Under the pieces are notes generated by a model. It searched no databases and was not told where the DNA came from. It saw only the letters and a program-made list of their open reading frames with translations. 35,263 bases of DNA from Mariprofundaceae bacterium (GTDB taxonomy: Bacteria > Pseudomonadota > Zetaproteobacteria > Mariprofundales > Mariprofundaceae), in the NCBI GenBank assembly GCA_027035825.1, contig JALVTX010000144.1, positions 1-35,263 of the forward strand. The letters run 5' to 3'. A program made the translations under genes and the position numbers. Shown here in pieces: positions 4,284-28,551 of this stretch (its first letter is position 1; every line of letters starts with the position of its first letter).

Positions 4284-4284
4284 G

Positions 4285-4890
4285 TCAGCTGTTCAGCCCC
4301 AGGATTTCGCGCGCGCGAATGGCGGCCTGAACGCGGTTGTCCACGTTCAGAATATCGAGAATGCTCTTGACGTATTGCTTGACGGTCCCCTCGGTGTGGC
4401 CCGTTTTCTCCGCGATCTCGCGATTGGACAGCCCCTCGGCCAGCAGGCGCAGGATACGTAGCTGGCTCGGCGTGAAATCGTGGGGCGAGGCGCTGGCATC
4501 CTTGGGAAACGCATGCTGGCCTTGCAAGATGCGGTCAATGGCCCGGAGAATGGCGTTCGCGTTGGCGGACTTCGGAACGAACCCGTTGGCGCCCGCATCC
4601 CTGAGCGAGCGCGCCACGTATGGGTCATCGCTCGCCGATACCACAAGGAGGGGAATCTCGGGCCAGGAAGCCCGAATACTGCGGATGGCGGGCAACGGCT
4701 CCTCGCCGGGCATGCGGAAATCCAGGACAAGAATGTCGGGGTGGAGCCCTTCCGCAAGGCGCTTGCGCACTTCGGCATGGGAGGATGCGATATCCACTCG
4801 ACAACCCGGCCTTTCGGTTTGCAGCAGGTTGCTCATGCCTTCCCGAAACAGCGCGTGGTCATCCGCCCAAAGTATATGCATGCGTTCCAT
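4285..4890 (-). CDS. LuxR/NarL(FixJ)-family response regulator (REC + LuxR HTH)
   Basis: This is the C-terminal 201 codons of the 612-aa minus-strand ORF, starting at MERMHILWADDH (ATG at 4890). REC motifs: DD pair, ILVLDFRMPG, LLVVSAS, GFVPKS. LuxR HTH: LTPSQLRILRLLAEGLSNREIAEKTGHTEGTVKQYVKSILDILNV. The rest of the ORF upstream (4891-6123) is antisense to the TolC gene and is not coding. The alternative start MHILW is at 4881. Confidence 0.9.
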   Translation of the reverse strand: MERMHILWADDHALFREGMSNLLQTERPGCRVDIASSHAEVRKRLAEGLHPDILVLDFRMPGEEPLPAIRSIRASWPEIPLLVVSASDDPYVARSLRDAGANGFVPKSANANAILRAIDRILQGQHAFPKDASASPHDFTPSQLRILRLLAEGLSNREIAEKTGHTEGTVKQYVKSILDILNVDNRVQAAIRAREILGLNS

Positions 4891-4998: not shown

Positions 4999-6351
4999 GT
5001 GAACTGGTGGGTGAGGAATACATTGGCATTGATGTCTGGCGCTTTCTGCCTGTGCGGCAGTTCCGGCGCCCTTGCGATGGGCGTGGAAGACGCCTTTCGG
5101 GCGGCCATGGATGGGGATCCGGGATTTCAGTCTTCCGAGGCAGCCATCGAGGTGGCCGAGGCGGGCAAGGCCAAGGCTTGGTCCCGTCTGCTGCCCGATG
5201 CGCGCGTGGAAGGGCGATTCGACCGCGTTGACCAGAATATTATCAGTTCGGACAACACGGTTTATGCGCTTGGCCATTCTCGCTACAACAAGGCATCGGC
5301 GGTGGGGCGGCTGATTCAGCCCGTGTTTCACTGGGATGCCATCAAGGGCATTGGCAAGGCCGCGCTGGTCGAGGAAAAGGTCCGCATTGAACGTCTGGAC
5401 GCCCGGTCGGACTTGGCCCTGCGCGTGGTGACGGCATATCTGGACGTGCTGTTTGCCGAGGATGACCTGGAACGGGCTCGTCGTGAGCGCGAGGCTGTCC
5501 GGGCGGAGCGGAATCGCATCGAGGCCCGCCATGCGTCCGGCCAGGCGTCTCGTGTGGAGCTGGAAGATGCGCGGGCGCGCGGCGAAATGGTGGAGGCGCT
5601 CCTGGTGCAGGCGCGGGATGCGCTTCAAGTGCGACGGGCGAACCTTGAGATGCTCGTTGGAACGCATGTGGACGAGTTGGAGCGGATGACCGACGAGGTG
5701 CAAATGTTGCGCGTGGATCCAATGGATGCCAAGGCATGGGTGGAGCGGGCTCTGAGCGGCAATCTCAAGGTCAGGGCTGCGATGCTTGGCGTGGAGATTG
5801 CCCGACGGGAAGTGGCCATCCAGCAAGCCGGCCACTTCCCGGTTCTGGACGCGGAGGCATCCTACGATTACCAGAAGACGACGGGATCGGTCTTCGGCGG
5901 CGGGAGCCGGGTTGGCACGATGGATTTGGCTCTGGTGCTCAAGGTGCCGCTGATATCCGGCGGGCGGGTGTTGGCGTCGACGCGGGAGGCGCGGGCTCGT
6001 CTTCGTCAGGCGGAATTGAGGCTGGAGCAGGCGCGCAGGCAGGCACGGAGGGATGTCCGGGATGCATTCGCGGGCGTTGTCAACGGTTTGGCCAAGCTGC
6101 GCGCGCTGAAGCGATCGGTGCAAGCTCAGGAGTTGTCGCTAAGGGTTCGGGAAAGGGGCGTGCGAGCCGGCCTGAATACGAGCGTGAAGGTTCTGGATGC
6201 ACGGCGGGACTTGTTCATTGTTCGGCGCGATTACGCCAGGGCGCGTTATGAGTACGTGAAACATTATCTTCGTCTGAAGCGGGCGGCGGGAGAACTTGAG
6301 GACAAGGACCTCAAGGCCGTGGACGGTTTGTTGCGGGGAGATGAATCATGA
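4999..6351 (+). CDS. TolC-family outer-membrane efflux/type I secretion protein
   Basis: 450 aa. Signal peptide ...AFCLCGSSGALA/MG. Two-fold repeated coiled-coil/OEP architecture with typical strings (AAIEVAEAGKAKAWSRLLPDARVEGRFD; VTAYLDVLFAEDDLERA; ARRDLFIVRRDYARARYEYVKHYLRLKRAAGEL). The GTG start at 4999 is uncertain. The stop TGA at 6349-6351 overlaps the next ATG (6348) as ATGA. Confidence 0.88.
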   Translation: MNWWVRNTLALMSGAFCLCGSSGALAMGVEDAFRAAMDGDPGFQSSEAAIEVAEAGKAKAWSRLLPDARVEGRFDRVDQNIISSDNTVYALGHSRYNKASAVGRLIQPVFHWDAIKGIGKAALVEEKVRIERLDARSDLALRVVTAYLDVLFAEDDLERARREREAVRAERNRIEARHASGQASRVELEDARARGEMVEALLVQARDALQVRRANLEMLVGTHVDELERMTDEVQMLRVDPMDAKAWVERALSGNLKVRAAMLGVEIARREVAIQQAGHFPVLDAEASYDYQKTTGSVFGGGSRVGTMDLALVLKVPLISGGRVLASTREARARLRQAELRLEQARRQARRDVRDAFAGVVNGLAKLRALKRSVQAQELSLRVRERGVRAGLNTSVKVLDARRDLFIVRRDYARARYEYVKHYLRLKRAAGELEDKDLKAVDGLLRGDES

Positions 6352-9300
6352 GGAGTTCGGTGTTTGCGCGGGTGGTCGAGGCCGTGAGACGGCGGTCGCG
6401 TCGCGGTCTGGCCGGGCGTCATGTTCGACTGGTGTTTGAGCCGCTGGAGGAGCGCCTTCTGCTGTCGGCGGATTTCGCGCCCCCGCCGCCGGATGCGCAG
6501 GGGCTCCGCGCCGCCCAGTGGGCGGCGTCGGTGGATGCCGCGCTTGGCGCGGGGCATCGGGATGCGGCGGTCGCGACGATGGCGCCGATGCATGAGGCGC
6601 TGACGAAGGTGCGGGAGAGTCGTGAAATTGTTTTCGTGGATCCGTCGGTGCGCGATTATCAGTCCCTTCTAAGCGGTTTAAGGCATGACGACAATGGCGC
6701 CCGGACGCTGGAAGTGGTGGTGCTGGATGCGGGCGCCGACGGCGTGGATCAGGTTTCACGGGTCTTGGCGGGCGCGCGGGGGCTTTCCGCCATTCATATC
6801 CTGTCGCATGGCGCCAGCGGCGCCGTGAAGCTGGGCGACTCCGCGCTCTCCTCGGCGAGCCTGGACGCGTACGCCCAGGCTGTGCGCGGCTGGGGCGAGG
6901 CGTTGAAGCCTGGCGGGGATATCCTGCTTTATGGGTGCAATGTGGCCTCGGGCCAGTCCGGCATCGCGTTCGTCAATCGCCTGGCGCATCTCAGCGGAGC
7001 GGACGTGGCGGCGTCCGATGACGTGACGGGCGGTCGAGGCTACGGCGACTGGAATCTGGAATATGCAACGGGCCGGATTGACGCGGCGCAGGCGTTCTCG
7101 GCGGCCGCGGAGGCTGGTTACGCGAATGCGTTGGGCTATGCCGTCAATCCGCCCGCAGGCACCGCTGTGGCCGCCAATCAGCAGGATGTATTCAAGTTTG
7201 ATGCAAACGGACTGTTGACGGCAGCCGGCGCGCCCATTGCCGGGCCGATCGATGGCCTGGGCGGGGCACCGGGCGCGCCCGACGTGCTGGATTTCAGCGC
7301 GTATGCGGGCAATCTGACCTTTACGATTCAGGGGGTGCCGGCCGGCGGCGCGGGGCCGGCGAGCGTAATCATTGCCGATGCGGCGGGGAACACGCTCACG
7401 GCCAACAACTTCGGCAAGATTATCGGCGGTTTGGGCAACGACACCTATGTATTCAATTCCGGCTGGGGCAATATCGTCATTCAGGACGCCGCGGGCGCCA
7501 ACAAGGCGGATTTTGCCGCAGTGGCAAGTCAGCTGACATCCACTGTGGGCGCGGGCACATTTACGCTGGCGGACGCCGCAGCACCGGCCAACACCGCGAC
7601 GCTGGATTCAGGCTTTGGGCTTAATCTTGATCTGACAGCCTACAAGACACAGATCAACAGCTACCTCGCCCAGCTTCAGAGTTTCGGTTCAACACTCGAC
7701 ACATTCGGCCAGTTCGCCAACGTCCTGCCCGGCATCAATCAATCATTGGGCACGGTGCTGAATGCGGCGGACATGCTGAAGCGGTTCCAGAATGATGTTT
7801 CCAATTATCTGGCCGCTCCTGGAACACCCAGCGGCAAACCGACCAGCGACGGGCTGGCCGCATTGTTGAACGGTCTGGCCGTGAATGCCACGCCCAACGG
7901 CCAGGGAACGATCTCGGGCGGCTACGGCCCGGTGGCATCCACGGTGAAGGTCGCGCCGGGCGGCGTGGAATTGGGATTTAATCTTGATTTCAATGTGACG
8001 CGCACGGCCAACTGGGCGGTGGATTTGGGTTCGAATGCCGCATTGCAGGGGATCAAGCTTCCCACGGTCAATGTGTCGGTGGGGGCCACATTCGATTTGA
8101 ATGCCATGCTGGGCATCCAGCTCAAGGCGACGCCGGCCGTATTCCTGGACGTGAACAATCTGAGCGGCAGCGCCAGCGTCAACGCGACCCTGAACGGATT
8201 CACGGTGGATTTCGGCTTTCTGACGGCTACCGCCAATGCCGGCGCATTCAATCTGTCGGCGGCGCTTCAGGCCGTTTTCAACGATCCCGCGGGCGATGGC
8301 GTCAACCGGCTGAGCCTGACCGAGCTGACCAATGCCGCGACGGCGCCTTCCTCGCTGATCGCCAGCTTCAATGCGCGCGGCGTAACCGTCACTGGCGCGG
8401 CGGACGCGGCGGGGACATCGCCCTCGTTCTCGTTCACCTTGCCGGTGACGGTGACGGGCGTGACGGGCGTTACAGGCGGAACGATTATCGCAACGCAAGC
8501 CAGCGTATTCAGCGGAAACGATCCGTCCGTATCCGTCACCAATGGCCTGACCGACTTCGGCAATATCGGCGCGGCGGACATGCTGGGCATGTTGCGGCAA
8601 CTGGATGGATGGCTGGCGCAGCTTTCCGGAACGTCCATCCTCAACCAGAAAGTGCCGATGACGCAAAACATCACGTTGGGCGATGTGCTGAACTTCGGCG
8701 TGGCGTTCAAGACCGATGTGGTGGACAAGCTCATCAAGCGGGACGCGCAGGGCAATCCGATTCTGGATGCCCAAGGCAACCAGCAGTTGACCTTTTCCAG
8801 CGCGCAGACATTGGCAAGCCGTTTGGGCAGCCTGCTTGGCGCCACGGTGACGGCCAATGTCATCGCCGCCACTGCGACGACGCCGAGGGAACTGCGCTAC
8901 CGGCTGAATTGGAGCCATGCCTTTGTGAACAGCAGCGTGCCGGCCAATTTCCAGTTGGACCTCGGCTCGCTGGCCGGCATTCAGTCCACGAGCAGCATTC
9001 CCATCACGGCGAACGCCACGCTGGGGTTTGATTTCGGCATTGCGCTGAATCCGAGCCGGACGCTGACCATCGCGCCGCCGAACTTTGTGCCCAATGCCAA
9101 TGTGGTTCCAGCCAACGGCCAGCTATCCGCGTCCGCCACATTCAACGTGACGCTGTTTGAAACCACGACAAAGACCGATGCCAATGGCGTGGTGACCAGC
9201 ACAACGCATGCGATGCCGCTGGTGAAGACCGTGACCGTGAACGCGGCGGATACGAACGGGACAACCGCCGGAACAACGGCCAATGCTTCCCCGCAAGATC

Positions 9301-12300
9301 TGGCGCTGGATGTGCAGAAGGCTCTGGATGCGGCTTTTGGAGCCAATGTGGTGAAGGCTTCCTACAATGGCAGTCGCATTATTCTGGAGGCGGTGAATCC
9401 GGCGAATACGACGAATGCCGCGGGGGTGACCACCAGCGTCAGTCGAGCCATCGAAGTGGGCGCGGCCTTGGGGAATACGGCCTACACGGAAATGGGATTG
9501 CCGCCCGCCACGCTTGCAAGCAATGCGACATTCAATGTGACGGTGACGACGCCTTCAACTGGCGCGAAGGCGAGCAAGGCCATCACGGTCACGTCTGGAA
9601 CTACTGGAACCAACAAAACCATTGCCGATCTGACCGCCGACGTGCAGGCGGCGCTGGACATGGCATTTCATGGCCAGTTGCGCGGTGGGGCCATCGCGCT
9701 GGGGCTCGGCCCGAATCCCTCGCCGGTTGATTTCAACGCGCTGATGGCGCGGGATCAGACCTTCCAGATGCAGGTTCAGGGTGTCGCCAATCCGGTTCAG
9801 GTTACGTTGACGGCTGCTGCTGGTAACGGCGTTTTGTCCACGCTCAGGACAAATCTGCAAACCGCCGTGACGAATGCCGTCAACGCGGCCATTGCGGCCG
9901 GAAATATTCCCGCGGGCACGGTGGTGACGGTAAGCCTGAACGGCGACGTGGTGTCGTTGACGGCCAGGGACGCCGCGGGGAATCCCCTGAACGTGAGCGT
10001 GCTGCAACCGGACGTGGTTGCATCGCATCAGGGCGGGCGCATCGTCCTCAACGCCACGCCGACGACGAAGACGACCAGCACGACGAACGCCAGCGGCGTG
10101 ACCGTCACGAGCACTACCAGCGTGCCCCGCGAGTTGAGCGTGACGGCCTTGCCAACGGATTCCGCCTATGCGGTGCTGGGGCTGTTGAATTATCCCACGC
10201 CGGCCAATGGCCAGCTTTCCGGCGACGCCGAGTTCAATATCAAGATCAATGGCGTGAACCATGCGGTGATCGTGACGGCGGCGAACACGAATGGGGCAGC
10301 TCCCGGAACGACGGCCAACGTCTCCATCGCGGATTTGGTGGCCGATGTCAACGCGGCGCTCGCGAACGCCGGCATCGGCGGCCAGGTCAGGGCGGTTCAG
10401 GTGAAGGATTCCGGCGGCAATCTCACCAATGCCTTGGGTTTTGAGTCCATCGCGGGGGCGGGCGTCAACAGTCTGGTGATCTCCGTGCCGAAATACCTGA
10501 GCGGCAGCGGCGTCACCGCCGGGGCCAGCAATAACGCGGCCGTGAACGAGCTTGGCTATGATCCGAATGCGGACATTGTGCAGAAAGGCCGCGCCACCGA
10601 CTTCTTCGTGGACAAGGCGGCGCTTTCCGGAACCGTGACATTCGACATGAGCAAGATTTCCGGTTCGGCACACTTCGGATTCCTTGGCGTGGACATGGCC
10701 AGTTCCGCGGGCGATGCCATCAGCGGAACGGCAAGCCTGAATCTGGTGAACCCGACGGCCCTGGGCGGCGGAAGGCGCGTGTTACTGTCCACGCTGGTCA
10801 GCCATCTCAAGAGCGGGACGATTCGCGACGTGGTGACGGGCAGCCTCAAGGGCAACGTCAACGTGAATTTGGTGCTGACGCCGCAGGCCGGCTTTTTCAC
10901 GGGCGCTGTTCCCCAAGCCCGGTTCAGCATCGGCCTGTCCAGTTTCGACTGGCTGAACAACAGGGTCATCAACACGGGAACGCCGACGGCGGGTCAGCTG
11001 AAGGTGAATACGAACCTGAGCATGATTTCCGGCCAGCTCAGCGATTTCACCAATTTCAGGCACATGGGATTCGCCGACATCATCGCGGCGCTGAATCAGG
11101 CGGTGAATTATCTGCACCAGACCGAGGGCACCACGGCGGGAGGCGGCTCGGCAGGGTCGGCCCTGGTGGGGCTGCTGGACAAGAAGATTCCCGTGATCGA
11201 CCAGAGCGCGACCGACCTTATCGGGTTGGCGGACAGGTTCGCGCGGGTCGTGACCCAGCTTCAGAATCAGCAGGCCGATTCGATTCAGGCGGCGGATCGG
11301 TTCATCAAGCAGGCATTGGGCCTGCCGCTGTTCCAGGCGGGAACGACCACGCCGACCGCGCCCGTGATTCGCTTTGACACGTCGATTATCGGCACGCAGA
11401 CGCTTCGTCTGGATTTGCCGTTCACGGTGTCCCTGAACAAGCATGTGCCGCTCGTTCTCGACCTGGCGCAGCTTGGCAGCCTGGCGGGCGTGACGTTTCC
11501 TTTGAAAATGAAGAAGTTCGTCGGCGTCAGTTCCACCGGCGATCTGAACCTGAGCGCCACGGCCACGTTGAATCTGGCTCTTGGCATGGAGATTGTCGGC
11601 ACGGGCGCCAGCGTGACATTCACGCCATTCCTCTACACCGGCGCGGGCAATACGAAACTGGACTTCACGGTGGCGGCCACCGGGACGAATCTCAATTTTA
11701 CCGCCCAGGCGGGGCCGTTCGGCATTCATGTCATCAATGGCTCGGCCAGCGCCAGCGAGGGCATTTCGTTCACCATGAAGGATGCGACCGGAACCGGACG
11801 GCATCTGTTCTCGGCCGGATTCTCCGCGGCTGACTTCAATGTCGGCGCGCCCACGGGCGCGGCCAGCGCCTCATTGCCCACTTTCTTCCCCAGCGCGTCC
11901 ACGCCCATTGGCGGCGCGGGCAACAATCTGTTCACCCTTGACGTGAAGTCGGTGAATGGATTGTTTGACCAGGTGTCGTTCCCGAAGGTGCCTTCCTTCG
12001 GCGGCCTGGTTGCGCTTACGCCGTTGGGCATGTTGAGTAATCCGGCAATCCTGATTGACGGTCTGGATATGCTGCTGCTCACCCTTCAGGATGCGCTCAA
12101 TTCGCAGGTGTTGAATGCCAGTTTGCCGTTTGTCGGCCAGGCATTGGAGCCGGCGTCGCAGTTTATTTCCGGCTTCCGCACCGATGTGTTGGCGCCGCTC
12201 AGCCTGAATCTCCGCGCCGCGGGCGGCTCGGCCGACCAGATCGTCGCCAACACATTGTTCAATGTGTTCGGTTCCGCGGCTGATGGCGCGGTCAAGCAGT

Positions 12301-15300
12301 TCGGCCTTGGTCAGCTTGGTTATCTCCAAGATATCAACGGTGATGGGGTGGTGAACCGGAATGATATCCAGACCAGCGGGTTCGGCCTGACGGATACATT
12401 CGGGCAGTTTGATTTCGTGATTGGCGACACCTATTGGGTGAAGGCGCCGACAGGGTTTGACCTTGGCGTTCCCGGGTTCAATCTCAGCATCGACGCCAAT
12501 GTGCTTCTTTCCATTGACTGGAGCATCCGCTTCAGCTTCGGCGTGGACCAGAACAAGGGGTTCTACTTCTACACCTCGAACAACAAGCCGGTGGTGCAGT
12601 TCAACAACATCAAGGGCGGCAATGAACTGCTGCCGGGGGGCACGCCGTTCGCCCAGCCCAATGAAATCAACATTACGGCGACGGCGCAACTGGTGTCCCG
12701 CAATTACACTGGGCCATCCAGCGGCACGGGCCCGTTGCCGGTCAGCGCCACGCCGGCCAGCGCCACAGGCACGCTTGGATTCCTGAAGCTGAAGTTGACG
12801 GATGGAGCGGGAACGGCCAAGAAGATTGCCAATGAAACCACGGCCAGCAACAAGACCCGCGTGGTGGCCGGGTTCTCCGTGGATGTGAAGGATCCGAACA
12901 ACGATGGATTCCTGACGTTTGCAGAAATGACGGCGCCATCCACGTCGTTTTCCAGCCTCCTGTCCACCACGAAGTCTGGCGGTGCGTTCCTCGGCCTGAA
13001 AACCAGGGTGGATTTCAGCGGCCTGAACATCAACCCGATTCCAGGCGTCAGCTTGGCCTCGCTATTGCCGAGCATGAGCTTTGATTTCGCCGGGCAATGG
13101 GATTTCTCCAGGAATTTCCAGATCAAGAAACCGACCGCGTTGGGTGGCGCTCTGGTTTCCCTCCAGTTCCAGAATATCCAGATGGATGCGGGTTCGCTCA
13201 TCAAGGGCTTCATCGGCCCATTCCTGGATCAGATCAAGGTTACCATCGGCCCGCTGGACTGGCTGCTAGGGCCGACGGGCATGCTGAACATGCGAATCCC
13301 GATGATTTCCGACCTGATGGGGCGGAGCATCAACCTGAATACGCTGGCCTCATGGTTTGGCACGGCCAAGTTTCAGGCCTTGCTGGATACCATTCAGAAC
13401 ATTTACAACCTCATCAGCATGGCGGCGAAGCTGCCATCCGCCGGGCTGGGAAACATCGGGTTCGGCAGTATTGATTTTTCCGGAATTGATTTCACGAATG
13501 TGAAGAACTTGAGTTTGCTGATTCCCAGCATGACCAATCCTCTGGTGGCGAACGAAACCACGATGAATTCACAAGCCAGAGGCTTTGTGGCTTCCGCAAG
13601 AGGCGGTGGCATCACGCTGGATATTCTGAAAGCAAGCAATGTGTTCCAGTTGTTGCTGGGCAAGCAGGACGTGAATCTGATTACGTTCAATCTGCCGAAG
13701 GCATCGCTGGCCTTTAACTATCTCCAACGTTTCCCGATATTCCCGCCTCTGTTTGCCACGCTGCAAGGCGGCTTCTCGGCCTCGGCCGATCTGGCCATAG
13801 GTTATGATACGCGCGGTCTGGCACAGTTTGGCGTTTCCCATAATCCGAACGCGCTCATCAATGGCTTCTTCTTCCACGATCTGAATCTGACCACCGGCGT
13901 GGATCAGCCCGAGGCAGTGTTGAACGGTTCTATTGCCGCCGGAGCGCAGATTTATGGAGGCATCGTTTCAGCTGGCGTGGCGGGTGGCATCAACGCGCAC
14001 GTGAATTTCAACTTCAATGATCCCAACCGCGATGGCAAGGTGCGCTTGGGCGAGATGGCGGCCAACATGCAGGCCAATGGCAATAATCCGCTGGCGATTT
14101 TCGATATCAGCGGCGCCGTGGACTGGTTCTTCCGGGCCTACGCGAAGGTGGGGGTCACCGTCTTTGGAAAATTCATCGGTTGGCAGAAATCATGGAATCT
14201 CGGTGGCGGCACGATCTTCAATTTCAATATCGGCTTTGCCCGGCCCGGCGTGGCGGCGCAAAAGGTGGGCTCTGAATTATGGGTAAATGTCGGCCCGAAC
14301 GCGGCCGACCGCATTCAGGGCAATGTGTCCGATATCAACGAGCATGTAAAAGTGAGCCTAGGAACCGGCCTTCATGCCGGGCAATACCATGTGCAGGTGC
14401 TCAATCGCGATACTGGCGCCATGTTGGCGGACAGCTATTTGTCCACTGCTGGCGTCAATAAGCTGGTGATTGACGGCGGCGCGGGCAATGACTGGATTGA
14501 AGTGAATGGCATTACCAAGCCGATCGAAGTGCATGGCGGCACGGGCGACGACACCATTACCATTACCGGCGCGACGGTTGGATTGAATGCCACGACGAAC
14601 AAGCCGCAAATCAATGTGTTTGGCGATGATGGAAATGACACGATTAATCTTGCCGGCAGTTCGGGGGCGGCGCTGATTCGCGGCGGCAAGGGGAACGATA
14701 CGATTACAGGCGGCTCCGGCGCGGATCAGCTCTATGGCGAGGGAGGCAATGACACGCTGAATGGCGGCGCGGGCAACGATCAGCTGACCGGCGGCTTGGG
14801 CAATGACAGGCTGGCTGGTGGCTCGGGGAACGATACGTATTTCTTCGCCAACAACTTTGGCAAGGATGTCGTGAATGATGCGGGGGGAACGGGCGATACC
14901 TGGGACTTCTCCAAGGTGACCACGGACATCAATTTCACGCTGAATGCATCGGGAACGAAGGCGGAGGTAACGACCAGTAAGGGCACCGTGACCGACAGCG
15001 TGACCGAGCAGATGAATTTGCTGGCCGTGGAGAATCTTCTGGGCAGCAGGGGCGCGGATACCTTCGATGTGTTTAATGTGGGCGCGAACAACCTGACGCT
15101 GAATGGCCAGGGCGGATCGGACACCTATATCATGAATGCGCCGTTAACTACGGCGGGCGGGCAGGTCGTCCTGAATGACACCGGCAACCTTTGGGACAGG
15201 GATGCGCTGGTGACCAAGGGAACGGCGAGTGGAGACGCATTCACGGTGACCGATCAGTCCATCACGATTGGGGTTGGGCTTAATGCAAGCTCAGTGAATT

Positions 15301-18300
15301 TCGGCACGGGCGGCGGCATCGAAACGATGGAAGTGCTCGGGTTTGGCGGCAACGATACCTTCAATGTCCTGGCCACGCCGAAAAGCATGAGCGTGACGCT
15401 GGATGGCGATGCGGGTGCGGATGTATTCAACATCGGGACTTCAAATGCCGGGTTTGTGCTGAATGGTGGTGCGGGCGCCACGGTGTTTGGTCTCAACGGC
15501 ATCCAGGGTAATCCGCAGCTTACAGGCAACCTTTTCATCAAGGGCGGTAGCGCCGCCGCGGGCACGCCCGTGGAGACCGATGTTCTGAACGTCTCCGATG
15601 CATTCGATGCGACCGCCAACACGGGCGCCATGACCGACAGCCTGATCACGGGCCTTGGCATGCAGGTCGGGATTGATTATGCGACTATTGAAACATTGAA
15701 CATTTTGCTGGGCTCCGCTGCAGATACCTTCACCGTGCAGAATACGATGGGCGGAACCACGAATGTGTTCGGAAACAATGGATCCGACATTCTGGATGTC
15801 CGGAACGCGGCGGGAGTGTTCATGGCGGACGGCGGCGCTGGCGCCGATGTAATTACCCTGCATTCCACCGCCTTGGCGACGAACGCGACATTGCTGGGGA
15901 AGGCCGGCAACGATCAATTGAACGTGCTGGCCGCCGCCGGGCCGACGGCGATTGGCGGCGGGACTGGCAATGATGTTGTGACGCTTGGCAGCAAGGCGCC
16001 GCTGGCGACGGGTGGAGTGGTTGACAACATATCGGGCCTGGTGACGGTGAGCGGCGACGCGGGCCAGGATGTTCTGAACGTGGACGACAGCGGCGATGCC
16101 AAGGGCAACGCGGGAGTTCTGACGGGGACGAGCCTGACGGGCTTCGGGATGGCGAAGGGCGTGCGGTATGGCACGGTGGAGACGCTGAATCTGAACCTTG
16201 GCGGCGCTGCGGACATGCTCACCGTGCAGAGCACGATGGGTGGTTCGACGAACGTATATGGCAATGGCGGATCGGATGTGATTGACATACGCAGCGCTTC
16301 GGGCGTGTTTGTGTCGGATGGCGGAGCTGGCGCTGATGTGATGACGCTTCATTCGTCGGTTTTGGGTTCGACGGTGACGATGCTCGGTCGGGGGGGGGCG
16401 GATCAGTTGAATGTTCTGGCCGCGTCTGGCGCGACGATCATGGACGGCGGCGCGGGCAATGATGTTGTGACGCTTGGGAGCTTGGCTCCGCAGACGCAGG
16501 GCGGGGTTGTTGACAACATTTTGGGCCTGGTGACGGTGATTGGCGGAGCCGGTCAGGATGTTTTGAACGTGGATGACAGCGGCGATGCCAAGGGCAACAC
16601 GGGTGTTTTGACGGGAACGAGCCTGACGGGTCTCGGGATGGCGAAGGGTGTGCAGTATGGCACGGTGGAGACGCTGAATCTGAACCTTGGCGGCGCTGCG
16701 GGGGCGGTGAGCCAGCTGGATATTCGTGGCACGAGCGCGTTGACGAATGTGGTTGGGGGCTTGGGCGGCACGACGTTCAATGTCAGCTCGGATGCTCCGA
16801 TGAACGCGGGCATTCTTGATGGCATTCAGGGTGTTTTGAACATTACGTCCAATGGCGCGGATACGTTGAACATCAGCGATCTGGGTCGTGTGTTGCCGGA
16901 CACGGTGACGATATCCAGTCAGACGGTGACGGGTCTTTCGCATGCGGCCATCAACTATTTTGAGGGCTTGGGCCGCTTTTCTGGCGGGATTAACATCAAT
17001 ACGGGTCAGGGCGCTGATGCGGTGACGGTTCTGAGCACGTTGGCGGGTGACGTCACATCCCTGTGGACGAATGGCGGATCGGATGTGATTGACATACGCA
17101 GCGCTTCGGGCGTGTTTGTGTCGGACGGCGGCGCGGGCAATGATGTTGTGACGCTTGGGAGCTTGGCTCCGCAGACGCAGGGCGGGGTTGTTGACAACAT
17201 TTTGGGCCTGGTGACGGTGATTGGCGGAGCCGGTCAGGATGTTTTGAACGTGGATGACAGCGGCGATGCCAAGGGCAACACGGGTGTTTTGACGGGAACG
17301 AGCCTGACGGGTCTCGGGATGGCGAAGGGTGTGCAGTATGGCACGGTGGAGACGCTGAATCTGAACCTTGGCGGCGCTGCGGGGGCGGTGAGCCAGCTGG
17401 ATATTCGTGGCACGAGCGCGTTGACGAATGTGGTTGGGGGCTTGGGCGGCACGACGTTCAATGTCAGCTCGGATGCTCCGATGAACGCGGGCATTCTTGA
17501 TGGCATTCAGGGTGTTTTGAACATTACGTCCAATGGCGCGGATACGTTGAACATCAGCGATCTGGGTCGTGTGTTGCCGGACACGGTGACGATATCCAGT
17601 CAGACGGTGACGGGTCTTTCGCATGCGGCCATCAACTATTTTGAGGGCTTGGGCCGCTTTTCTGGCGGGATTAACATCAATACGGGTCAGGGCGCTGATG
17701 CGGTGACGGTTCTGAGCACGTTGGCGGGTGACGTCACATCCCTGTGGACGAATGGCGGCAATGACGTGGTGACCGCATCCAGCACAGCCGCCAATGGGCT
17801 TCTCATCGTTTTCGGAGGCGAGGGAAGCGATACGGTGAATGCCTCCTCGTGGAACCGGGGGATGGTGGCTTTTGGCGATTACGGCATGGTGCAGTACGCG
17901 GGCTCTGTTCGTAGGCCGGATAGCATTGTTGCCGCCAGTTCGCTCAATCCGGGTTCGGGCGGCAATGACGTCTTGTCCGGGGGAAGCGGCAACGATGTTC
18001 TGATTGGGGGCTTTGGGAACGAGGTATTGTCCAGCGGACGGGGGAATGATGTTCTGATTGGCGATTCCGGCGAGGTGTTGTTTGTCAATGGACGCTTCTC
18101 TCAGGCATCCACTACCGATTTTTTGGTTGGCGGGGCGGATACGCTAATCAGCGGAGCCGGCAACGATGTGCTGCTCGGCGGCTTCGGGAAGGATGTGTTC
18201 ATCGGCAATCTTTCGCGGGACGTGATGATTGGCGACAATGGGCGCATCACGATGCACAATGGCAAGGTGACGACCGTGGTGACGTTCGCCCAGGCGCCGC

Positions 18301-18830
18301 AGGATGTGATTGCATCAACCCTGTTCCACCTCTATGACAGCCCGTATGCTGATGTCGCGGTTACATTGCCGCGCGCGCCTCTTGACCTGATCCTGGGGGC
18401 GAGGCAAGAAGCGCCGGGCGCTCAGAGCGCAACGCCGGCGAGCGACAGGCGGGACATGGTTGGCGAAAGCAGTTATCTCGGCATGGGCGGAGACTCGTTC
18501 ATCAAGCGGGAACCAACCGCCGGCAAAGCGGCGGATCGGGGATTGGAGGTGGAAAAGTTCGCCATGATGGCTCAATCTGCGCATGGCGGGGGGCGGATGC
18601 TCGCGGCAAACCCGCATGCGTCCGGAGCGAGCGAAACAGTTTCGGCGCCACATGTTCGGCAGGCCGAGGGCGATGCCGCCGGTCATGCGTGGCCGGGCAT
18701 GTTGCTGGCCGCATGCGCTGGCTGGAAGACTGTCCGACGGGGGCGTGCGCGAAACCGGACTGTTCGGGTGAATTTCGCGGGCGGAAAGAAGGCCGGCAGA
18801 CCCTCGGCGAGAGTGAACTGGGGCTCTTGA
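6348..18830 (+). CDS. Giant (4160 aa) DUF4347-domain / RTX-repeat secreted repeat protein (putative T1SS-type adhesin)
   Basis: Single uninterrupted 12.5-kb ORF. N-terminus ...[14 protein letters not shown] is followed by a DUF4347-like domain. A ~2400-aa Ala/Gly/Thr/Ser/Asn/Val-rich, almost Cys-free region contains divergent modules. A hemolysin-type GGxGxD nonapeptide block and tandem beta-helix-like modules follow, then more degenerate GGxGxD repeats near the C-terminus. Confidence 0.93.
   Translation: [4160 protein letters not shown]
6621..7082 (+). other. DUF4347-like N-terminal domain of the giant protein (aa ~92-245)
   Basis: [20 protein letters not shown]...[48 protein letters not shown]...[40 protein letters not shown]...GDWNLEY. 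This is the pattern I associate with DUF4347 at the N-terminus of very large repeat proteins. Recognition is from memory, not from a search. Confidence 0.7.
14474..14835 (+). repeat. Hemolysin-type Ca-binding (RTX) nonapeptide repeat block
   Basis: [85 protein letters not shown], i.e. consecutive GGxGxDxL/I/x units. Confidence 0.9.
15732..16709 (+). repeat. Two divergent tandem 489-bp (163-aa) modules inside the giant gene
   Basis: Anchor strings recur at a 489-nt offset: accgtgcag at 15732 and 16221; ttgacaacat at 16021 and 16510. Protein level: [19 protein letters not shown]...[65 protein letters not shown] versus [19 protein letters not shown]...[65 protein letters not shown]. A more degenerate copy lies upstream (~15540-15731). 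Confidence 0.75.
16263..17758 (+). repeat. 100%-identical direct duplication: 807-bp unit (16263-17069) followed by a 681-bp copy (17070-17750) lacking 126 bp
   Basis: Compared line by line: 16442-17077 equals 17123-17758 (636 bp, offset 681, no mismatch seen), and 16263-16318 equals 17070-17125 (56 bp, offset 807). The second copy lacks 42 codons ([42 protein letters not shown]) between two DGGAG motifs. The identical antisense ORFs in the track (16553-16825 and 17234-17506) reflect the same repeat. Confidence 0.95.
17951..18250 (+). repeat. Degenerate C-terminal GGxGxD-like repeats of the giant protein
   Basis: [44 protein letters not shown] ... [40 protein letters not shown]. Confidence 0.7.
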
Positions 18831-18870: not shown

Positions 18871-19212
18871 ATGACAAAGCAGACGGCTGACAGCCAGACG
18901 GAGGCACAAGGTCAAACCGAGCCCAAGGTGATTTGGGATGACTCGGAGATGGTGAGCAGCTATGCCAATGTGGTGAACGCGACCAGCACGCGCGAGGAGT
19001 TCATGGTGTTTTTCGGCGTCAACCAGACTTGGAATCCAGCGCAGGCGGAGGTCGCGATCAAGCTGACCAATCGCATCGTGATGAGCCCCTTTGCCGCCAA
19101 GCGACTGAGCTTGATTCTGGCCAACGTTTTGCGCGAATACGAGGCCAATTTCGGCACGATCCCGCTGGATTTGCAGACCGTCCAGGAAACGGGGCGCGAG
19201 CAGCCGAACTGA
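18871..19212 (+). CDS. Small cytoplasmic protein, DUF3467-like (113 aa)
   Basis: ATG at 18871 is preceded by AAGGAG (18858-18863) with a 7-nt spacer, the best SD in the block. No signal peptide. The core YANVVNATSTREEFMVFFGVNQ...IKLTNRIVMSPFAAKRLSLILANVLREYEANFG resembles the DUF3467 pattern (Y.N...I.....EF.LDFG...V.RIVM.P..AK.L...L...I..YE..FG) as I remember it. Confidence 0.6.
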   Translation: MTKQTADSQTEAQGQTEPKVIWDDSEMVSSYANVVNATSTREEFMVFFGVNQTWNPAQAEVAIKLTNRIVMSPFAAKRLSLILANVLREYEANFGTIPLDLQTVQETGREQPN

Positions 19213-19235: not shown

Positions 19236-21059
19236 GTGATGAAGGTTGAGGAAGGACGGGAGTCCTTCGAATTTCTGGATGCGGATGAGTGGCGGTCGCT
19301 CGCGGCCGCCGTTCCCGTGGGAGATTTCGCTTATTCTTGGTTGAATATCCTTTGCAGGATGCTTCCCCACGCACGAACCGGCGTGGTGGTGGTGCTGACG
19401 GATGGAGAATTCTCCGTTCTCGCGCAATGGCCGGAGCAAGGCGCGGATGTCCCCCGCGCGCTTCGGGATGTCGTGGAGGCGGCGCTCGATGAGAGAACCG
19501 CCACCATCCTTCGAGAGGCAAACGCCTCAACAACCGCCATGGCTTATCCGATCTTTTCCGCGGACGAGATCCATGCCGTGGCGGGGCTGCTGATGGCGGA
19601 CGCCTCGCCGGTGCAGATTCAGAGCGCGATGCGCCTCATGCAATGGGGCGGAGGGTGGTTGCAGTCCCGCGGCGCACGCGAAGCCGGGATGGAGACGGAT
19701 GAACGGGCGTTGTCCATTCTGTCCGCCGTGCTGGAGAGGCAATCCTTTTGGGAAGCCGTTCATGCGCTGGTGACGGAACTTGCGCTTGCCTGGTCATGCG
19801 AGCGCGTTTGCTTTGGGCGCTTGCGCAAGAACGGCGAGGCCAGACTGGAAGCGACGTCATTCCAGTCCGATTTCGATCGGAGGACGCGCCACACTCGCGA
19901 GATCGAAACGGTGATGGATGAGGTGCTTGCCGAAGGCGAGGCCATCCGATGGCCCGAGGACGATGCGGATGAATTGCTCATTGCCCATCGGCAATACGCC
20001 AAATCGCGCGGAGCTGTCTTTCTGCTGGGTTTCCCCGTGTTCGTGAATCAACGCCCGTGGGGCGTGTTGCTCCTGGAGAGGGATGATCGGCCGTTCTCGG
20101 AACGTGAGAAGAACGCGATAGCCGTTGTCTGCGACCTGGTCGGACCGTGGCTGAAGCTGACGGCCGAGGCGGGGCAATCGTTGCCATCGGTCGCCCTTCA
20201 GCGGTTCCGGCGGCAGTGGAGCAGGTTGTTCGGCTCCGGTTATTGGCTGCGCAAGGCGTTGGTCGCGGGGCTGAGCGTCGCGCTGCTGGCGCTTGCGGCG
20301 GTTCCGGGCGAATTCCGAATTGGCGGCGAGGCCACGCTGGAGGGGCTCTCGCAGCGTATCGTCGCCGCGCCATTCGATGGCTATGTTGACAAGGCATTTG
20401 TCCGGGCCGGAGATCGGGTGAAAAAGGGGCAGGCGCTTTGCCGCATGGATGAGCGGGATTTGCGCCTGGAGGAGAGCAAGTGGCTTTCCAAGCTGGCCGA
20501 GGCGAGAGACGCGTACCGGAAGGCATTGGCGGATCGGGACAAGGTGAAGATCCGCGTGGGTCAGGCGCGGGTTCGGCAAGCCGAGGCGGAGCTGGCGCTC
20601 GTGCGGAGGAAATTGTCTCGCATGGTGCTTCGGGCGCCCTTCGACGGTCTGGTGGTGAAAGGCGACTTGAGCCAGGCGCTGGGCAGCCCGAAACGCAAGG
20701 GGGAGGAGCTTTTCACGATTGCCCCGGTCAACCAGTACAGGGTGGCCGTGTTTATCCCGGAATACGATGTGGCGAACGCCGCCATTGGGCAGGCGGGAGA
20801 ATTGAGGCTGGCCGCCATGCCCTCGCGCCCCTTGCGGGTGCGACTGGCCCGGTTGACGTCCGTGGCGGAGGTTAAGGACGGAATCAACACATTCCGGGCG
20901 GAAGCGATGCTTGTTCAAGGAACGAATCACGCGCATGCGCTGAGGCCAGGTCTGAAAGGCGTATGCAAGTTCATTGTGGATCGCCGCGCCATCGGATGGA
21001 TATGGTTCCATCATTTGTGGCAATGGCTGCGGTTGAAGTTCTGGGAGTGGACGCCCTGA
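19236..21059 (+). CDS. GAF-like (x2) cytoplasmic sensor, single TM helix, periplasmic HlyD/membrane-fusion adaptor
   Basis: 607 aa. The N-terminal ~320 aa has no TM helix and contains two GAF-like units (...GVVVVLTDGEFSVLAQWPEQ...AMAYPIFSADEIHAVAGLLM; ...CERVCFGRLRKNGEARLEATS...GFPVFVNQRPWGVLLLERDDRPFSEREKNAIAVVCDLV). TM helix LRKALVAGLSVALLALAAV. MFP hallmarks follow: biotinyl-lipoyl-like hairpin (IVAAPFDGYVDKAFVRAGDRVKKGQALCRMD...VLRAPFDGLVV) flanking a coiled coil, then a beta-barrel region. Starts at GTG 19236 or ATG 19239. Confidence 0.8.
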   Translation: MMKVEEGRESFEFLDADEWRSLAAAVPVGDFAYSWLNILCRMLPHARTGVVVVLTDGEFSVLAQWPEQGADVPRALRDVVEAALDERTATILREANASTTAMAYPIFSADEIHAVAGLLMADASPVQIQSAMRLMQWGGGWLQSRGAREAGMETDERALSILSAVLERQSFWEAVHALVTELALAWSCERVCFGRLRKNGEARLEATSFQSDFDRRTRHTREIETVMDEVLAEGEAIRWPEDDADELLIAHRQYAKSRGAVFLLGFPVFVNQRPWGVLLLERDDRPFSEREKNAIAVVCDLVGPWLKLTAEAGQSLPSVALQRFRRQWSRLFGSGYWLRKALVAGLSVALLALAAVPGEFRIGGEATLEGLSQRIVAAPFDGYVDKAFVRAGDRVKKGQALCRMDERDLRLEESKWLSKLAEARDAYRKALADRDKVKIRVGQARVRQAEAELALVRRKLSRMVLRAPFDGLVVKGDLSQALGSPKRKGEELFTIAPVNQYRVAVFIPEYDVANAAIGQAGELRLAAMPSRPLRVRLARLTSVAEVKDGINTFRAEAMLVQGTNHAHALRPGLKGVCKFIVDRRAIGWIWFHHLWQWLRLKFWEWTP

Positions 21060-23217: not shown

Positions 23218-23225
<8 letters not shown>
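21069..23225 (+). CDS. Fusion protein: cytoplasmic N-domain, ~9-TM M50 (site-2-protease-type) zinc metalloprotease, periplasmic HlyD/MFP adaptor
   Basis: 718 aa, ATG preceded by GAGGGAG. HExxH inside a TM helix (LKLVHELGHGLLVKK; HELGH at nt 21702-21716). Second M50 motif with the third Zn ligand (FNLNPLLRFDAYYVVSDLLG, nt 21990-22016). I count about nine hydrophobic helices. The C-terminal part has MFP hallmarks (VAGASGFVRALHVKDGEHVQRGQSILDM, coiled coil ...RARQRILKAQLEAMAVE...DRLRDINDRISAL, then ILSRQSGVMYF). Confidence 0.82.
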
Positions 23226-25172
<1,947 letters not shown>

Positions 25173-25176
<4 letters not shown>

Positions 25177-25952: not shown

Positions 25953-25981
25953 TTGCCCGGCGGGGGTCGCGCGTCTATAGT
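25953..25981 (+). promoter_or_regulatory. Candidate sigma70 promoter of the rpsP operon
   Basis: TTGCCC (25953-25958), 17-bp spacer, TATAGT (25976-25981), about 33 nt upstream of the rpsP ATG. Pattern match only. Confidence 0.4.
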
Positions 25982-26013: not shown

Positions 26014-26454
26014 ATGGCAACCGTGATTCGTTTGCAGCGTGGCGGGCGCAAGAAACGGCCGTTCTATTCCGTGGTGGTGATGGACTCGCGAGCCCGTCGC
26101 GATGGCGCCTTCATCGAGAAGGTGGGCTATTTCGACCCCTGCCGCGAGCCGGATGTCATCGAGCTGAACGTGGAGCGCATTCGCGCCTGGGAAGAGCAGG
26201 GCGCGCAGATTTCTCCGCGCGTGGCCAGCCTCGTGAAGCGCTTCGAGAACCCGGAACTGGTCGAGAAGGAGAAGGCCAGGGCCGAGGCCAAGGCCGCCGC
26301 CAAGGCGGAAGCGGAGGCCCGCGCCGCCGCCGAAGCCGCTGCCAAGGCCGAGGAAGAGGCCAAGGCTGCCGAGGAAGCGACCGCGGAGGCCGAGTCTGGT
26401 GAGGCCGCCGAGGAGGACGCCGCCGGCGAGGGCGAGGAGCAGGCCGACGCCTGA
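26014..26454 (+). CDS. rpsP: 30S ribosomal protein S16 with an Ala/Glu/Lys-rich C-terminal extension
   Basis: [42 protein letters not shown]...[23 protein letters not shown] is a canonical S16 core (~80 aa). It is followed by a ~65-aa tail, [63 protein letters not shown]. Confidence 0.95.
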
Positions 26455-28444: not shown

Positions 28445-28461
28445 GCCGGCGCGGGTTCAGG

Positions 28462-28488: not shown

Positions 28489-28551
28489 AGAGAGTGAGCG
28501 GAACAAAACAGGAAGAAAACCGGAAACAAACCAAACAACGGGAGAAGCGAC

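Follow-up and report, generated by a model that had tools for sequence, protein, structure and literature searches.

A candidate TolC-dependent export cassette with a short SecA-like ATPase in the place of a type I ABC exporter, encoded with a giant RTX protein in a Mariprofundaceae bacterium

The window analysed here, a stretch of 35,263 nucleotides from a Mariprofundaceae bacterium, carries on its forward strand a gene for a TolC-family outer-membrane channel with an N-terminal signal peptide (4999..6351), a gene for a giant protein of 4160 aa (6348..18830) and, downstream of these, a series of genes that extends to position 25943. The 450-aa tolC reading frame matched the Pfam OEP family with an E value of 3.8e-47 and scored 234.6 bits against the cutoff of 225.15 for the NCBIfam model type_I_sec_TolC (TIGR01844), which places it in the TolC family as this is defined for type I systems. 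This frame ends with the TGA at 6349-6351, and the giant gene starts at the ATG at 6348, with a GGAG located 8-11 nt 5' of it; both codons thus lie within a shared ATGA at 6348-6351, just as the initial annotation had read them. As the 4-bp ATGA is the commonest type of overlap in bacterial operons, this feature is not unusual in itself, and two further overlaps occur in the same operon, one at 23218-23225 and the other an ATGA at 25173-25176. Scans for promoters and terminators were uninformative, giving counts close to the shuffled expectation, and no convincing terminator was detected inside the operon; Rfam and tRNA scans of the window gave no matches. The junctions at 6348, 23218-23225 and 25173 are tight or overlap, which, with the lack of a convincing internal terminator, is best explained if the genes at 4999-25943 form a single operon. 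Upstream of this region lie a hybrid histidine kinase with HisKA, HATPase_c and receiver domains in Pfam searches (2514..4283, forward strand), which is a candidate regulator of uncertain membership in the system, and a NarL/LuxR-type response regulator (4285..4890, reverse strand), which matched ErdR/NarL-like NCBIfam models, is divergent from tolC and is likewise a candidate regulator.

The giant protein is acidic and rich in Gly, Ala, Thr and Asn, contains only two Cys residues (aa 197 and aa 4123) and has no TM segment. RTX repeats were detected in it with an E value of 1.6e-23, and both repeat motifs and profile matches delimit two blocks. The first, a block of Ca-binding nonapeptides (aa 2706-2863; 14463..14936), contains seven strict copies of GGxGxD at aa 2710-2824 (nt 14475-14846), and the second, an RTX-like block (aa 3798-3968; 17739..18251), is made up of looser repeats. 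Ten more copies of GGxGxD are spread across aa 3162-3944, of which those at aa 3878 and 3944 fall within 17951-18250. The hallmarks that had been ascribed to this protein, viz. its length of 4160 aa, a DUF4347 domain, the GGxGxD blocks and a near absence of Cys, were all borne out. In its middle part (aa 265-2700), Pfam searches of ten overlapping 500-aa slices matched RTX only, and the presence of adhesin-type domains in this part was rejected on that basis; a search for tandem repeats at the DNA level found two trivial arrays only. At its C-terminus the protein has a strongly basic tail of 44 aa (18696..18827; ...AACAGW KTVRRGRARNR...ARVNW GS) with the motif AGxxGW-basic-RxxRW, which is common to other giants linked to the same cassette and includes two near-invariant Trp residues (alignment A4).

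It had also been stated that the giant protein has no N-terminal Sec signal. This holds, as nowhere in the protein is there a segment of the hydrophobicity needed for such a signal or for a TM helix; however, a leader of another type had been missed, since aa 28-50 (6429..6497), which include RLVFEPLEERLLLSAD and are preceded by a basic stretch, pass the NCBIfam model for the LEPR-XLL N-terminal domain (NF012209; 24.9 bits, cutoff 17). The consensus of this leader, as obtained from 57 sequences, was R-K..FExLEPRxLLSAD, and it was present on every cassette-adjacent giant whose N-terminus lies in the retrieved sequence. Judged from these sequences, the cargo feature common to the cassette is the N-terminal leader, and neither DUF4347 nor RTX. 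The DUF4347 domain was considered as the cargo-defining feature and rejected, as the cargo in Methylosinus has the leader and lacks DUF4347, and many cyanobacterial DUF4347 proteins are without the leader.

The DUF4347 domain itself (aa 94-262; 6627..7133) was matched by Pfam with an E value of 1.2e-52. Its AF2 model has a pLDDT above 93 over most of aa 90-260, and the top Foldseek match of this model was Tce1 (9qpe_G, E 4e-5); legumain and caspases came next, with probabilities of 0.96-1.0. Tce1, a T6SS effector of P. aeruginosa (PA0256), has been reported as a DUF4347 protein and a putative Cys protease. A putative dyad is formed by His154 (nt 6807-6809) and Cys197 (nt 6936-6938), and across 46 sequences the Cys is invariant and the His near-invariant (at least 90%). 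Pfam, fold and dyad point to a predicted clan-CD cysteine protease of the CPD/Tce1-like kind. It resembles the clan-CD proteases (the CPD of MARTX and TcdB, and Tce1) in the fit of its model to Tce1 and to caspase/legumain folds and in the conserved dyad, set in His-Gly ... Tyr-Gly-Cys, but differs from them in its setting, which here is the stretch directly after the leader in a giant protein of surface type and in their case is a T6SS effector or a toxin.

The first gene behind the giant one encodes a small DUF3467 protein, predicted to be cytoplasmic (18871..19212; Pfam E 2e-20), with a strong SD. A role for this protein as a SecB-like chaperone was considered and rejected: its AF2 model (four strands and a long helix, pLDDT 66) had no Foldseek match in the PDB at E<0.3, and hhalign against an E. 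coli SecB sequence gave a probability of 0.2%. A sequence search of the PDB with DUF3467 also found nothing. Next is a gene for an adaptor (19239..21059), referred to here as GAF-MFP, in which profile matches indicate a GAF domain on the cytoplasmic side (nt about 19755-20144), a single TM segment (aa 341-359) and a periplasmic HlyD-type adaptor. It is followed by a gene for a 718-aa protein (21069..23225), the M50-HlyD fusion, which combines a PqqD-like domain (aa 35-103; nt 21171-21377), an M50/S2P-like intramembrane metalloprotease with about 7 TM segments and a periplasmic HlyD-like adaptor. The sequences HELGH (nt 21702-21716) and NPLLRFD (nt 21990-22010) of this protein correspond to HExxH and NPLLxxD motifs that are invariant in an alignment of four diverged members (A1). 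In four of four members a PqqD-like domain was matched by PF05402 in the same place, with 18.9-23.4 bits and thus at or below the cutoff of 23.4. The M50 part scored 14.6 bits with PF02163, below the cutoff of 27.2, and matched the NCBIfam model daptide_HExxH with an E value of 6.5e-42, but with 144 bits against a cutoff of 300; the curated family nearest to it is a RiPP leader peptidase that carries a PqqD-type domain. The names given by PGAP to homologs of this fusion are 'PqqD family', 'peptidase M50' and 'site-2 protease'.

The following gene (23218..25176) encodes a short SecA-like ATPase of 652 aa, in which Pfam recognised a DEAD motor (NBD1 and NBD2; SecA_DEAD, E 7.5e-89; P-loop_SecA, E 2.9e-45) and a preprotein cross-linking domain (PPXD; SecA_PP_bind, E 1.1e-22). 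It retains the GEGKT, DEAD, TGTA and GRxxRxG motifs in addition to the PPXD, and possesses both the motor and the clamp of SecA; like the invariant motifs of the M50 part, this argues for catalytic competence. The full SecA architecture is not present: the protein aligns with E. coli SecA up to residue 658 and ends within the first scaffold helix, and is therefore without the wing domain, the two-helix finger/IRA1 and the C-terminal tail. With the NCBIfam models it scored 528 bits against the SecA cutoff of 814 and fell below all four SecA2 cutoffs. Its best 120 homologs are all 576-693 aa long. The start of the last gene (25173..25943) overlaps the stop of the SecA-like gene in the ATGA mentioned above and has the SD GGGAGGAAG 5' of it; its product is a small periplasmic adaptor (MFP) of 256 aa. 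The presence of an outer-membrane channel and several MFP-type genes, which had been noted earlier, was thus substantiated by a TolC and three adaptors.

To our knowledge this cassette (GAF-MFP, M50-HlyD, short SecA and small MFP, all on the forward strand) is apparently undescribed as well as widespread; a full-text literature search, in which most subscription journals were not covered and where absence is no proof, found no published description of it. At least 590 species genomes encode the M50-HlyD fusion, of which 3534 representatives were found at E<=1e-30 after clustering at 50% identity. The order of the four genes was nearly invariant in 83 loci; among the neighbours of M50-HlyD, GAF-MFP was found in 73 of 75 loci, the short SecA in 69 of 71 and the small MFP in 57 of 67. 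These loci are from Alpha-, Beta-, Gamma- and Deltaproteobacteria, Nitrospiraceae and Omnitrophota, and the closest homologs of the cassette proteins show 40-57% identity. DUF3467 was directly 5' of the cassette in 25 of 74 loci, which makes it an optional accessory. An ORF of at least 900 aa directly adjoined the cassette in 36 of the 48 loci visible on both sides, and the role of partner that the earlier reading had implied for the downstream SecA-like cassette agrees with its being a conserved neighbour of such giant genes. The same seven genes are present on the Methylosinus plasmid pMSC49a, viz. those for an 8847-aa leader-bearing giant, DUF3467, MFP, PqqD/M50-HlyD, short SecA, MFP and, last, TolC. 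The order of tolC and the giant gene seen in our window had been called unusual, together with their coupling; the order is indeed rare, as TolC adjoins the cassette in only three of 83 related loci and precedes the giant gene in this way in one of them alone (L008), but the ATGA overlap itself is common. In two other loci (L047 and L069) the TolC gene is inside the cassette. Another histidine kinase/response regulator pair lies upstream of the tolC-giant pair in L008.

RTX proteins of this kind are normally exported by a trio of ABC, MFP and TolC components, usually encoded alongside them, and the ABC component had been reported missing from the window. No ABC ATPase was found in the 35 kb, either by Pfam searches of the long ORFs or by a scan for Walker A, signature and Walker B motifs in all six-frame ORFs. 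Nor was a HlyB-type ABC found in 42 kb of pMSC49a or in any of 86 related loci (about 1.5 Mb), where the possibility of a hidden ABC exporter was rejected because the motif scan gave only three ABC ATPases, all of 282-337 aa. Comparison thus shows that loci of this kind consistently lack the ABC gene, and that its absence here is not an accident of the window. Furthermore, the three adaptors scored 54.7, 24.7 and 44.3 bits with the type_I_hlyD model (TIGR01843), of which the cutoff is 208.65, and the small MFP instead passes the general RND_mfp model (TIGR01730, 118.5 against 94.9). With no ABC gene and no adaptor that reaches the type I model, the label of T1SS substrate that had been given to the giant protein fails its defining test. 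We suggest that this giant RTX protein lacks an accompanying ABC exporter because it is part of a widespread cassette of a short SecA-like ATPase, a protease-adaptor fusion, two further adaptors and TolC, which probably exports giants with the conserved N-terminal leader.

The reading that we favour, and which on balance appears likely from the gene content, is that the operon at 4999-25943 encodes a dedicated, TolC-dependent, envelope-spanning exporter of the giant, in which the short SecA-like ATPase would replace the type I ABC protein. The steps proposed for it are what we infer from observed gene and domain content, motif conservation, synteny and the lack of an ABC gene. The leader of the cargo (the basic stretch and FExLEPRxLLSAD) would be bound in the cytoplasm by the PqqD-like domain, the clamp of the short SecA or both, a step at which DUF3467 may act as an optional accessory. 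With ATP as its energy source, the SecA-like motor would then feed the unfolded chain, which is poor in Cys, through an assembly in the inner membrane formed by the polytopic M50 domain together with the adaptors' TM anchors, and as the three HlyD-type adaptors would bridge to TolC, the chain is proposed to leave the cell in one step. The leader would be removed by the M50 metalloprotease, the RTX blocks would fold with Ca2+ outside the cell, and the CPD-like cysteine protease near the N-terminus may process or release the giant. Gating or regulation of the machine may fall to the GAF domain and perhaps also to the two-component system nearby. That such systems constitute a new secretion class, i.e., SecY-independent, TolC-dependent one-step exporters with a truncated SecA docked on a leader-recognising fusion of intramembrane protease and adaptor, serving FExLEPRxLLSAD giants in at least hundreds of species from several phyla, is a broader claim which we advance more tentatively, as a possibility that stops a little short of probable.

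Several observations count against the exporter reading. No adjoining giant was seen in 12 of the 48 loci visible on both sides, the SecA gene is absent from two loci (L007 and L014), and TolC is seldom next to the cassette. The two-helix finger and scaffold of canonical SecA engage SecY and regulate the ATPase, and these are the parts that the short SecA is missing. M50 proteases are not known to us as protein-conducting channels. Lastly, the RTX blocks and the conserved C-terminal tail could indicate a C-terminal, T1SS-like recognition; we know of no sequence model for T1SS signals.

This last point leads to the alternative that the giant is an ordinary type I substrate, exported C-terminus first by an unlinked HlyB-type ABC/MFP pair together with this TolC, with the cassette having another task, such as the processing, anchoring or release of the protein or its quality control. 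The genome is in view over 35 kb only, the TolC passes the type I cutoff, and the giant has its RTX blocks in the C-terminal third with 216 aa beyond the last of them and a tail that is conserved among giants; however, this tail is strongly basic and a conserved N-terminal leader exists, and despite the usual linkage of T1SS genes with their cargo, none of the 86 cassette loci has an adjoining ABC exporter, the conserved neighbour of the giants being the cassette. We therefore regard this alternative as unlikely. What the locus has in common with type I systems (HlyB-HlyD-TolC, and LapBCE for giant LapA-type adhesins) is a channel of the TolC family, periplasmic adaptors of the HlyD type and, in the same operon, an RTX cargo that is giant, acidic and poor in Cys, for which export in one step is the natural reading. 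It differs from them in that it has no ABC protein, its ATPase is SecA-like, its inner-membrane part is an M50 protease-adaptor fusion, its three adaptors are of different kinds and its cargo has a conserved N-terminal leader. It also differs from the LapA system in having no LapG/LapD-type genes in the window, where no LapG (BTLCP protease) or LapD-type domains were found among the ORFs.

A second alternative is export in two steps, in which the short SecA would act as an accessory SecA2 that delivers the giant to the housekeeping SecYEG, with the second step, from the periplasm to the outside, left to the adaptors and TolC, in the manner of MacAB-TolC and the enterotoxin STII. Accessory systems of the SecA2 kind serve a small set of large adhesins. 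The short SecA is a true homolog, with a DEAD motor and preprotein clamp homologous to those of SecA and SecA2 and with intact ATPase motifs, and like SecA2 it appears to be an extra copy dedicated to a special large cargo. However, the two-helix finger and those parts of the wing and scaffold by which SecA touches SecY are missing along with the C-terminal tail, its scores are below every curated SecA and SecA2 cutoff, the cargo has no hydrophobic signal peptide, and the cassette contains no SecY2-like gene, its SecA being linked in diderms to adaptors and TolC and not to SecY2/Asp genes. Such a route thus seems improbable to us. A published parallel speaks for the favoured exporter reading: SecA-like domains with DEAD and PPXD parts and no scaffold or wing are embedded in giant proteins of Omnitrophota, for which self-export has been proposed (West-Roberts et al., bioRxiv 10.1101/2023.11.21.568195). 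Those of giant Omnitrophota and Actinobacteria proteins resemble the present ATPase in having SecA_DEAD and preprotein-binding domains without scaffold or wing and in their link to giant proteins, but here the ATPase is a separate protein of 650 aa, encoded along with adaptors and an M50 protease in a cassette of four genes that is fixed; the terms HlyD, TolC and M50 are absent from the main text of that work.

Homology to the daptide intramembrane metalloprotease covers the N-terminal half of the 718-aa protein, and this protein's PqqD-like domain, its attached HlyD-type domain and a substrate with an N-terminal leader-like motif are further points of likeness to RiPP machinery (PqqD-type element, daptide HExxH peptidase and NHLP-type HlyD); a weak match to the NHLP bacteriocin HlyD was also found in the cassette. 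It could be supposed from this that the cassette serves RiPP-like maturation and export, with a small unannotated peptide as its real substrate and only an indirect link to the giant gene. We give this little credence, as clustering of the flanking ORFs revealed no recurring modifying enzymes or conserved small ORFs, the leader-like motif is on the giants themselves, and a SecA-type unfoldase/translocase would be unnecessary for small peptides. In contrast to RiPP systems, the candidate substrate here is thousands of residues long, modifying enzymes are lacking, and a SecA-like ATPase and TolC are present. That the genes form no export machine and are adjacent through shared regulation, e.g., as a module for regulated intramembrane proteolysis beside a surface protein, is very doubtful. 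M50/S2P proteases are indeed common in signalling and GAF and two-component genes are present, but three periplasmic adaptors, TolC and an ATPase have the architecture of an exporter, and the gene order is conserved across phyla with overlapping starts and stops.

The TolC-coupled tripartite exporters known to us all have an ABC, RND or MFS protein as their inner-membrane engine, and SecA is, as far as we know, active only with SecY. If the exporter reading is true, the combination of adaptors, TolC and an intramembrane protease with a motor of the SecA type would amount to a new type of engine, and would suggest a route out of the cell for bacterial proteins of 4,000-9,000 residues and a function for the orphan LEPR-XLL leader, for DUF3467 and, in part, for DUF4347. 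It would also correct common errors of annotation, as PGAP labels the short SecA either 'prepilin peptidase' or simply 'SecA', and the fusion with the protease 'PqqD family protein'. Among the bacteria in culture that carry the cassette are Methylosinus sp. C49, Neptuniibacter caesariensis MED92, Desulfoluna limicola ASN36, Bradyrhizobium sp. DOA9 and a number of rhizobia and roseobacters, and the proposed exporter is therefore directly testable.

The gene order of the GC-rich window (GC content 0.55-0.71) was deduced from an ORF map combined with Pfam and NCBIfam scans. Its forward strand encodes an FKBP protein (157-867), ffh (1135-2502) and a hybrid histidine kinase (2514-4283), followed on the minus strand by a NarL-type response regulator (4285-4890). 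On the forward strand there follow TolC (4999-6351), which scores above the type_I_sec_TolC cutoff, the 4160 aa giant protein (6348-18830) with a DUF4347 domain (aa 94-262) and RTX repeats, a DUF3467 protein (18871-19212) and four genes that we refer to as the cassette: a GAF domain joined to a HlyD-type periplasmic adaptor (GAF-MFP; 19239-21059), a 718 aa HExxH membrane protease fused to a HlyD-like adaptor (M50-HlyD; 21069-23225), a 652 aa SecA homolog (short SecA; 23218-25176) and a small adaptor (small MFP; 25173-25943). rpsP (26014-26454), trmD, dnaK, dnaJ, dapB and others lie 3' of these on the same strand. The ATGA overlap of the tolC and giant genes (6348-6351), pointed out in the initial annotation, is borne out in the sequence; such an overlap is ordinary by itself, and the same operon contains two more (23218-23225, and ATGA at 25173-25176). 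A 768 aa ORF on the minus strand (28321-30627) matches the Pfam family NAD-GH (PF10712; E 2.4e-196); it is almost certainly a shadow ORF opposite hsp70/dnaK rather than a real gene.

The giant had been interpreted as a type I secretion substrate without its HlyB-type ABC exporter. The sequence observations behind this all hold: seven strict GGxGxD motifs are present at aa 2710-2824 and 10 more are scattered over aa 3162-3944, the protein contains two Cys and lacks any hydrophobic segment, and no ABC ATPase was detected across the window by Pfam/NCBIfam scans or by a scan for Walker A, signature and Walker B motifs. The interpretation is only partly supported, as membership of an ordinary type I system is contradicted by the lack of an ABC component and of any adaptor in the window reaching the type_I_hlyD cutoff. 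The object of interest is also larger, being a SecA-like/M50-adaptor/TolC module for leader-bearing giants. A type I system with an unlinked ABC exporter, in which the cassette would be a processing or anchoring module, is unlikely. On its side, the ABC absence in this genome, like the exporter reading developed below, is drawn from the window, and the cargo may be recognized at its C-terminus, given the RTX blocks and the C-terminal tail. Against it, the same motif search of six-frame ORFs from 86 related loci revealed no HlyB-type fused exporter; the only three ABC ATPases were all 282-337 aa in length, and therefore none is of this type.

The leader of the giant was overlooked in the initial annotation. 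Residues 28-50 (...RLVFEPLEERLLLSAD...) pass the NCBIfam model for the LEPR-XLL N-terminal domain, and a basic stretch followed by this motif occurs in every giant whose N-terminus falls within the fetched sequence (those of the window and nine related loci), with no other match in 3 million six-frame residues. The consensus of 57 sequences is R(-7)-[KR](-6)..F-E-a-L-E-P-R-[LI]-L-[LF]-S-A-D, with an invariant Arg and a median motif start of residue 26. The mark of the cassette cargo is the leader and not DUF4347, since many cyanobacterial DUF4347 proteins do not have the leader, whereas a Methylosinus giant has it without DUF4347. A tail composed of AGxxGW, a basic stretch and RxxRW, with two near-invariant Trp, is common to giants whose genes terminate immediately 5' of related cassettes (10 loci), and the last 44 residues of the window's giant (18696-18827; AACAGW-basic-ARVNWGS) fit this motif; alphaproteobacterial giants end differently (W..GLLxRLxxLF). 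The conserved tail could serve as a second signal, for sorting or anchoring. In another metagenome assembly with an identical DUF3467 protein, the gene just 5' of it (L086:1992-2960) encodes only 322 aa (RTX), which suggests assembly fragmentation, a frameshift or variation of the giant gene.

In an alignment of 46 DUF4347 sequences, H154 of an SHG motif is near-invariant (at least 90%) and C197 of GDILLYGC, one of only two cysteines among the giant's 4160 residues, is invariant. An AlphaFold2 model of the domain (pLDDT >93 over most of aa 90-260) best matched Tce1 of P. aeruginosa in the PDB (9qpe_G, E 4e-5), with legumains and caspases next in rank. Tce1 (PA0256) is reported to contain DUF4347 (PMC8262886) and, as a putative cysteine protease, to possess a His/Cys dyad that can be aligned with the CPDs of TcdB and RtxA (PMC13323088). 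Hence, DUF4347 is best read as a predicted clan-CD, CPD-like protease domain, and it is a candidate self-processing protease.

The short SecA retains the DEAD motor, the preprotein cross-linking domain and the second nucleotide-binding domain, all with intact motifs. Its alignment with E. coli SecA stops at residue 658, inside the first scaffold helix, and thus the wing domain, two-helix finger/IRA1 and C-terminal tail are missing. Its score falls below all curated SecA and SecA2 cutoffs, and its best 120 homologs (45-57% identical, all 576-693 aa) are, where an organism is named, annotated as Delta-, Beta-, Gamma- or Alphaproteobacteria. The cassette ATPase is thus a SecA homolog outside both curated families; SecA2-like delivery of the cargo to SecYEG, followed by expulsion through the adaptors and TolC, would make use of its intact motor, and we consider it improbable for a protein lacking the regions through which canonical SecA acts on SecY. 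In the 718 aa protein, residues 35-103 give a PqqD-like match that recurs in place across four diverged members, and residues 18-407 match the daptide intramembrane leader peptidase (E 6.5e-42). Both M50 motifs (HExxH and NPLLxxD) are invariant, and the protein has about seven TM segments and a HlyD-like C-terminal part. A RiPP-type peptide system, with which the PqqD and daptide matches would agree, is very improbable.

In the neighbourhoods of three SecA homologs the four cassette genes occurred in identical order (3/3), and DUF4347 giants adjoined two of them. A scan with the protease-adaptor alignment, using one genome per GTDB species, found matches in at least 590 genomes; the 80 loci kept are from the Alpha-, Beta-, Gamma- and Deltaproteobacteria, Nitrospiraceae, Omnitrophota and one Flavobacteriales MAG. 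An exhaustive HMMER search yielded 3534 representatives at 50% identity (E<=1e-30), and nearly all of the best 150 are about 715 aa. When the window's proteins were compared by tblastn with 83 non-redundant loci (denominators being the loci with room), GAF-MFP was directly upstream of M50-HlyD in 73/75, short SecA directly downstream in 69/71 and small MFP downstream in 57/67; DUF3467 was just upstream of the cassette in 25/74, and TolC was adjacent in 3/83. Among the 48 loci for which 3 kb or more could be viewed on each side, 36 had a directly adjacent ORF of no less than 900 aa (28 on the same strand upstream, six downstream, two divergent), and most of these ORFs run past the 10-kb flank, already exceeding 2000 aa. 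SapC-family genes (PF07277; e.g., L001:5071-5865) are inside or beside the cassette in 19/85 loci at variable positions, including between M50-HlyD and SecA (e.g., in L022, L025, L053, L063 and L079), and none is present in the window; the family owes its name to the gene at the type I secretion locus of the Campylobacter fetus S-layer.

Plasmid pMSC49a of Methylosinus sp. C49 carries an 8847 aa giant, DUF3467, MFP, M50-HlyD, short SecA, MFP and TolC, i.e., the window's seven genes but with TolC last; its giant, which begins ...RRAKIIFDTLEPRVLLNAD, lacks DUF4347, and no ABC gene is present in 42 kb. In two other loci (L047 and L069) TolC is inside the cassette. In L008, a histidine kinase, a response regulator, tolC and the giant follow one another as they do in the window, except that 62 bp separate the genes that overlap there. 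The NCBI/PGAP product names 'PqqD family protein' for M50-HlyD and 'prepilin peptidase' for several short SecA homologs (including that of pMSC49a at 22222-24138) mislead and hide the module. The inconsistency of these names, to which 'efflux RND transporter periplasmic adaptor' is added, shows that the module goes unrecognised in annotation.

The most economical reading of the gene content, motifs and synteny, and one that we hold to be somewhat probable, is a dedicated envelope-spanning exporter driven by the short SecA, of which we infer the following steps. Recognition of the leader would fall to the SecA clamp, the PqqD-like domain or both, the short SecA would supply ATP-driven threading of the cargo, the polytopic M50 domain and adaptor anchors would build the inner-membrane part, M50 would remove the leader, the three adaptors would couple to TolC, and as the final step the RTX blocks would fold outside the cell. 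Counting against this exporter are the absence of an evident channel-forming component, the loss of the SecY-related parts of SecA, and the RTX blocks and C-terminal tail of the cargo, at which recognition may take place instead. That the cassette has no export role at all is very improbable.

The cassette would work most like type I secretion, yet without ABC. Its closest published parallel is provided by giant Omnitrophota proteins that embed SecA DEAD and PPXD domains without scaffold or wing, which are proposed to export them (bioRxiv 10.1101/2023.11.21.568195). In line with this, an Omnitrophota MAG locus (L014, 10001-22106) has GAF-MFP, M50-HlyD and then directly a leader-bearing giant of >3150 aa with no separate SecA, which is likewise absent from L007. 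Our literature searches yielded no account of the cassette, and the module is widespread, conserved and apparently undescribed. We rate it as a putative novel form of the tripartite TolC-dependent exporters; the chance that it merits the name of a new secretion system class is substantial, if slightly below even.

The two-component genes, tolC, giant and cassette (2514-25943) lie between ffh and rpsP, which usually sit together with rimM-trmD. This position and the lower GC content of the giant gene (0.55-0.63, against 0.64-0.71 in its flanks) suggest that the block was inserted by horizontal transfer; homologous cassettes were found on 13 plasmids. Genes for a histidine kinase and a response regulator are paired directly 5' of the tolC-giant genes both in the window (2514-4890) and in L008 (5216-7858), where the position is the same but the families differ (hybrid kinase and NarL type versus 7TMR-DISM kinase and OmpR type), and together with the GAF domain this system is a candidate regulator. 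A promoter-like TTGCCC-17-TATAGT (25953-25981) is present in the 70 bp that separate the small adaptor gene from rpsP, and rpsP may thus have retained its own promoter.
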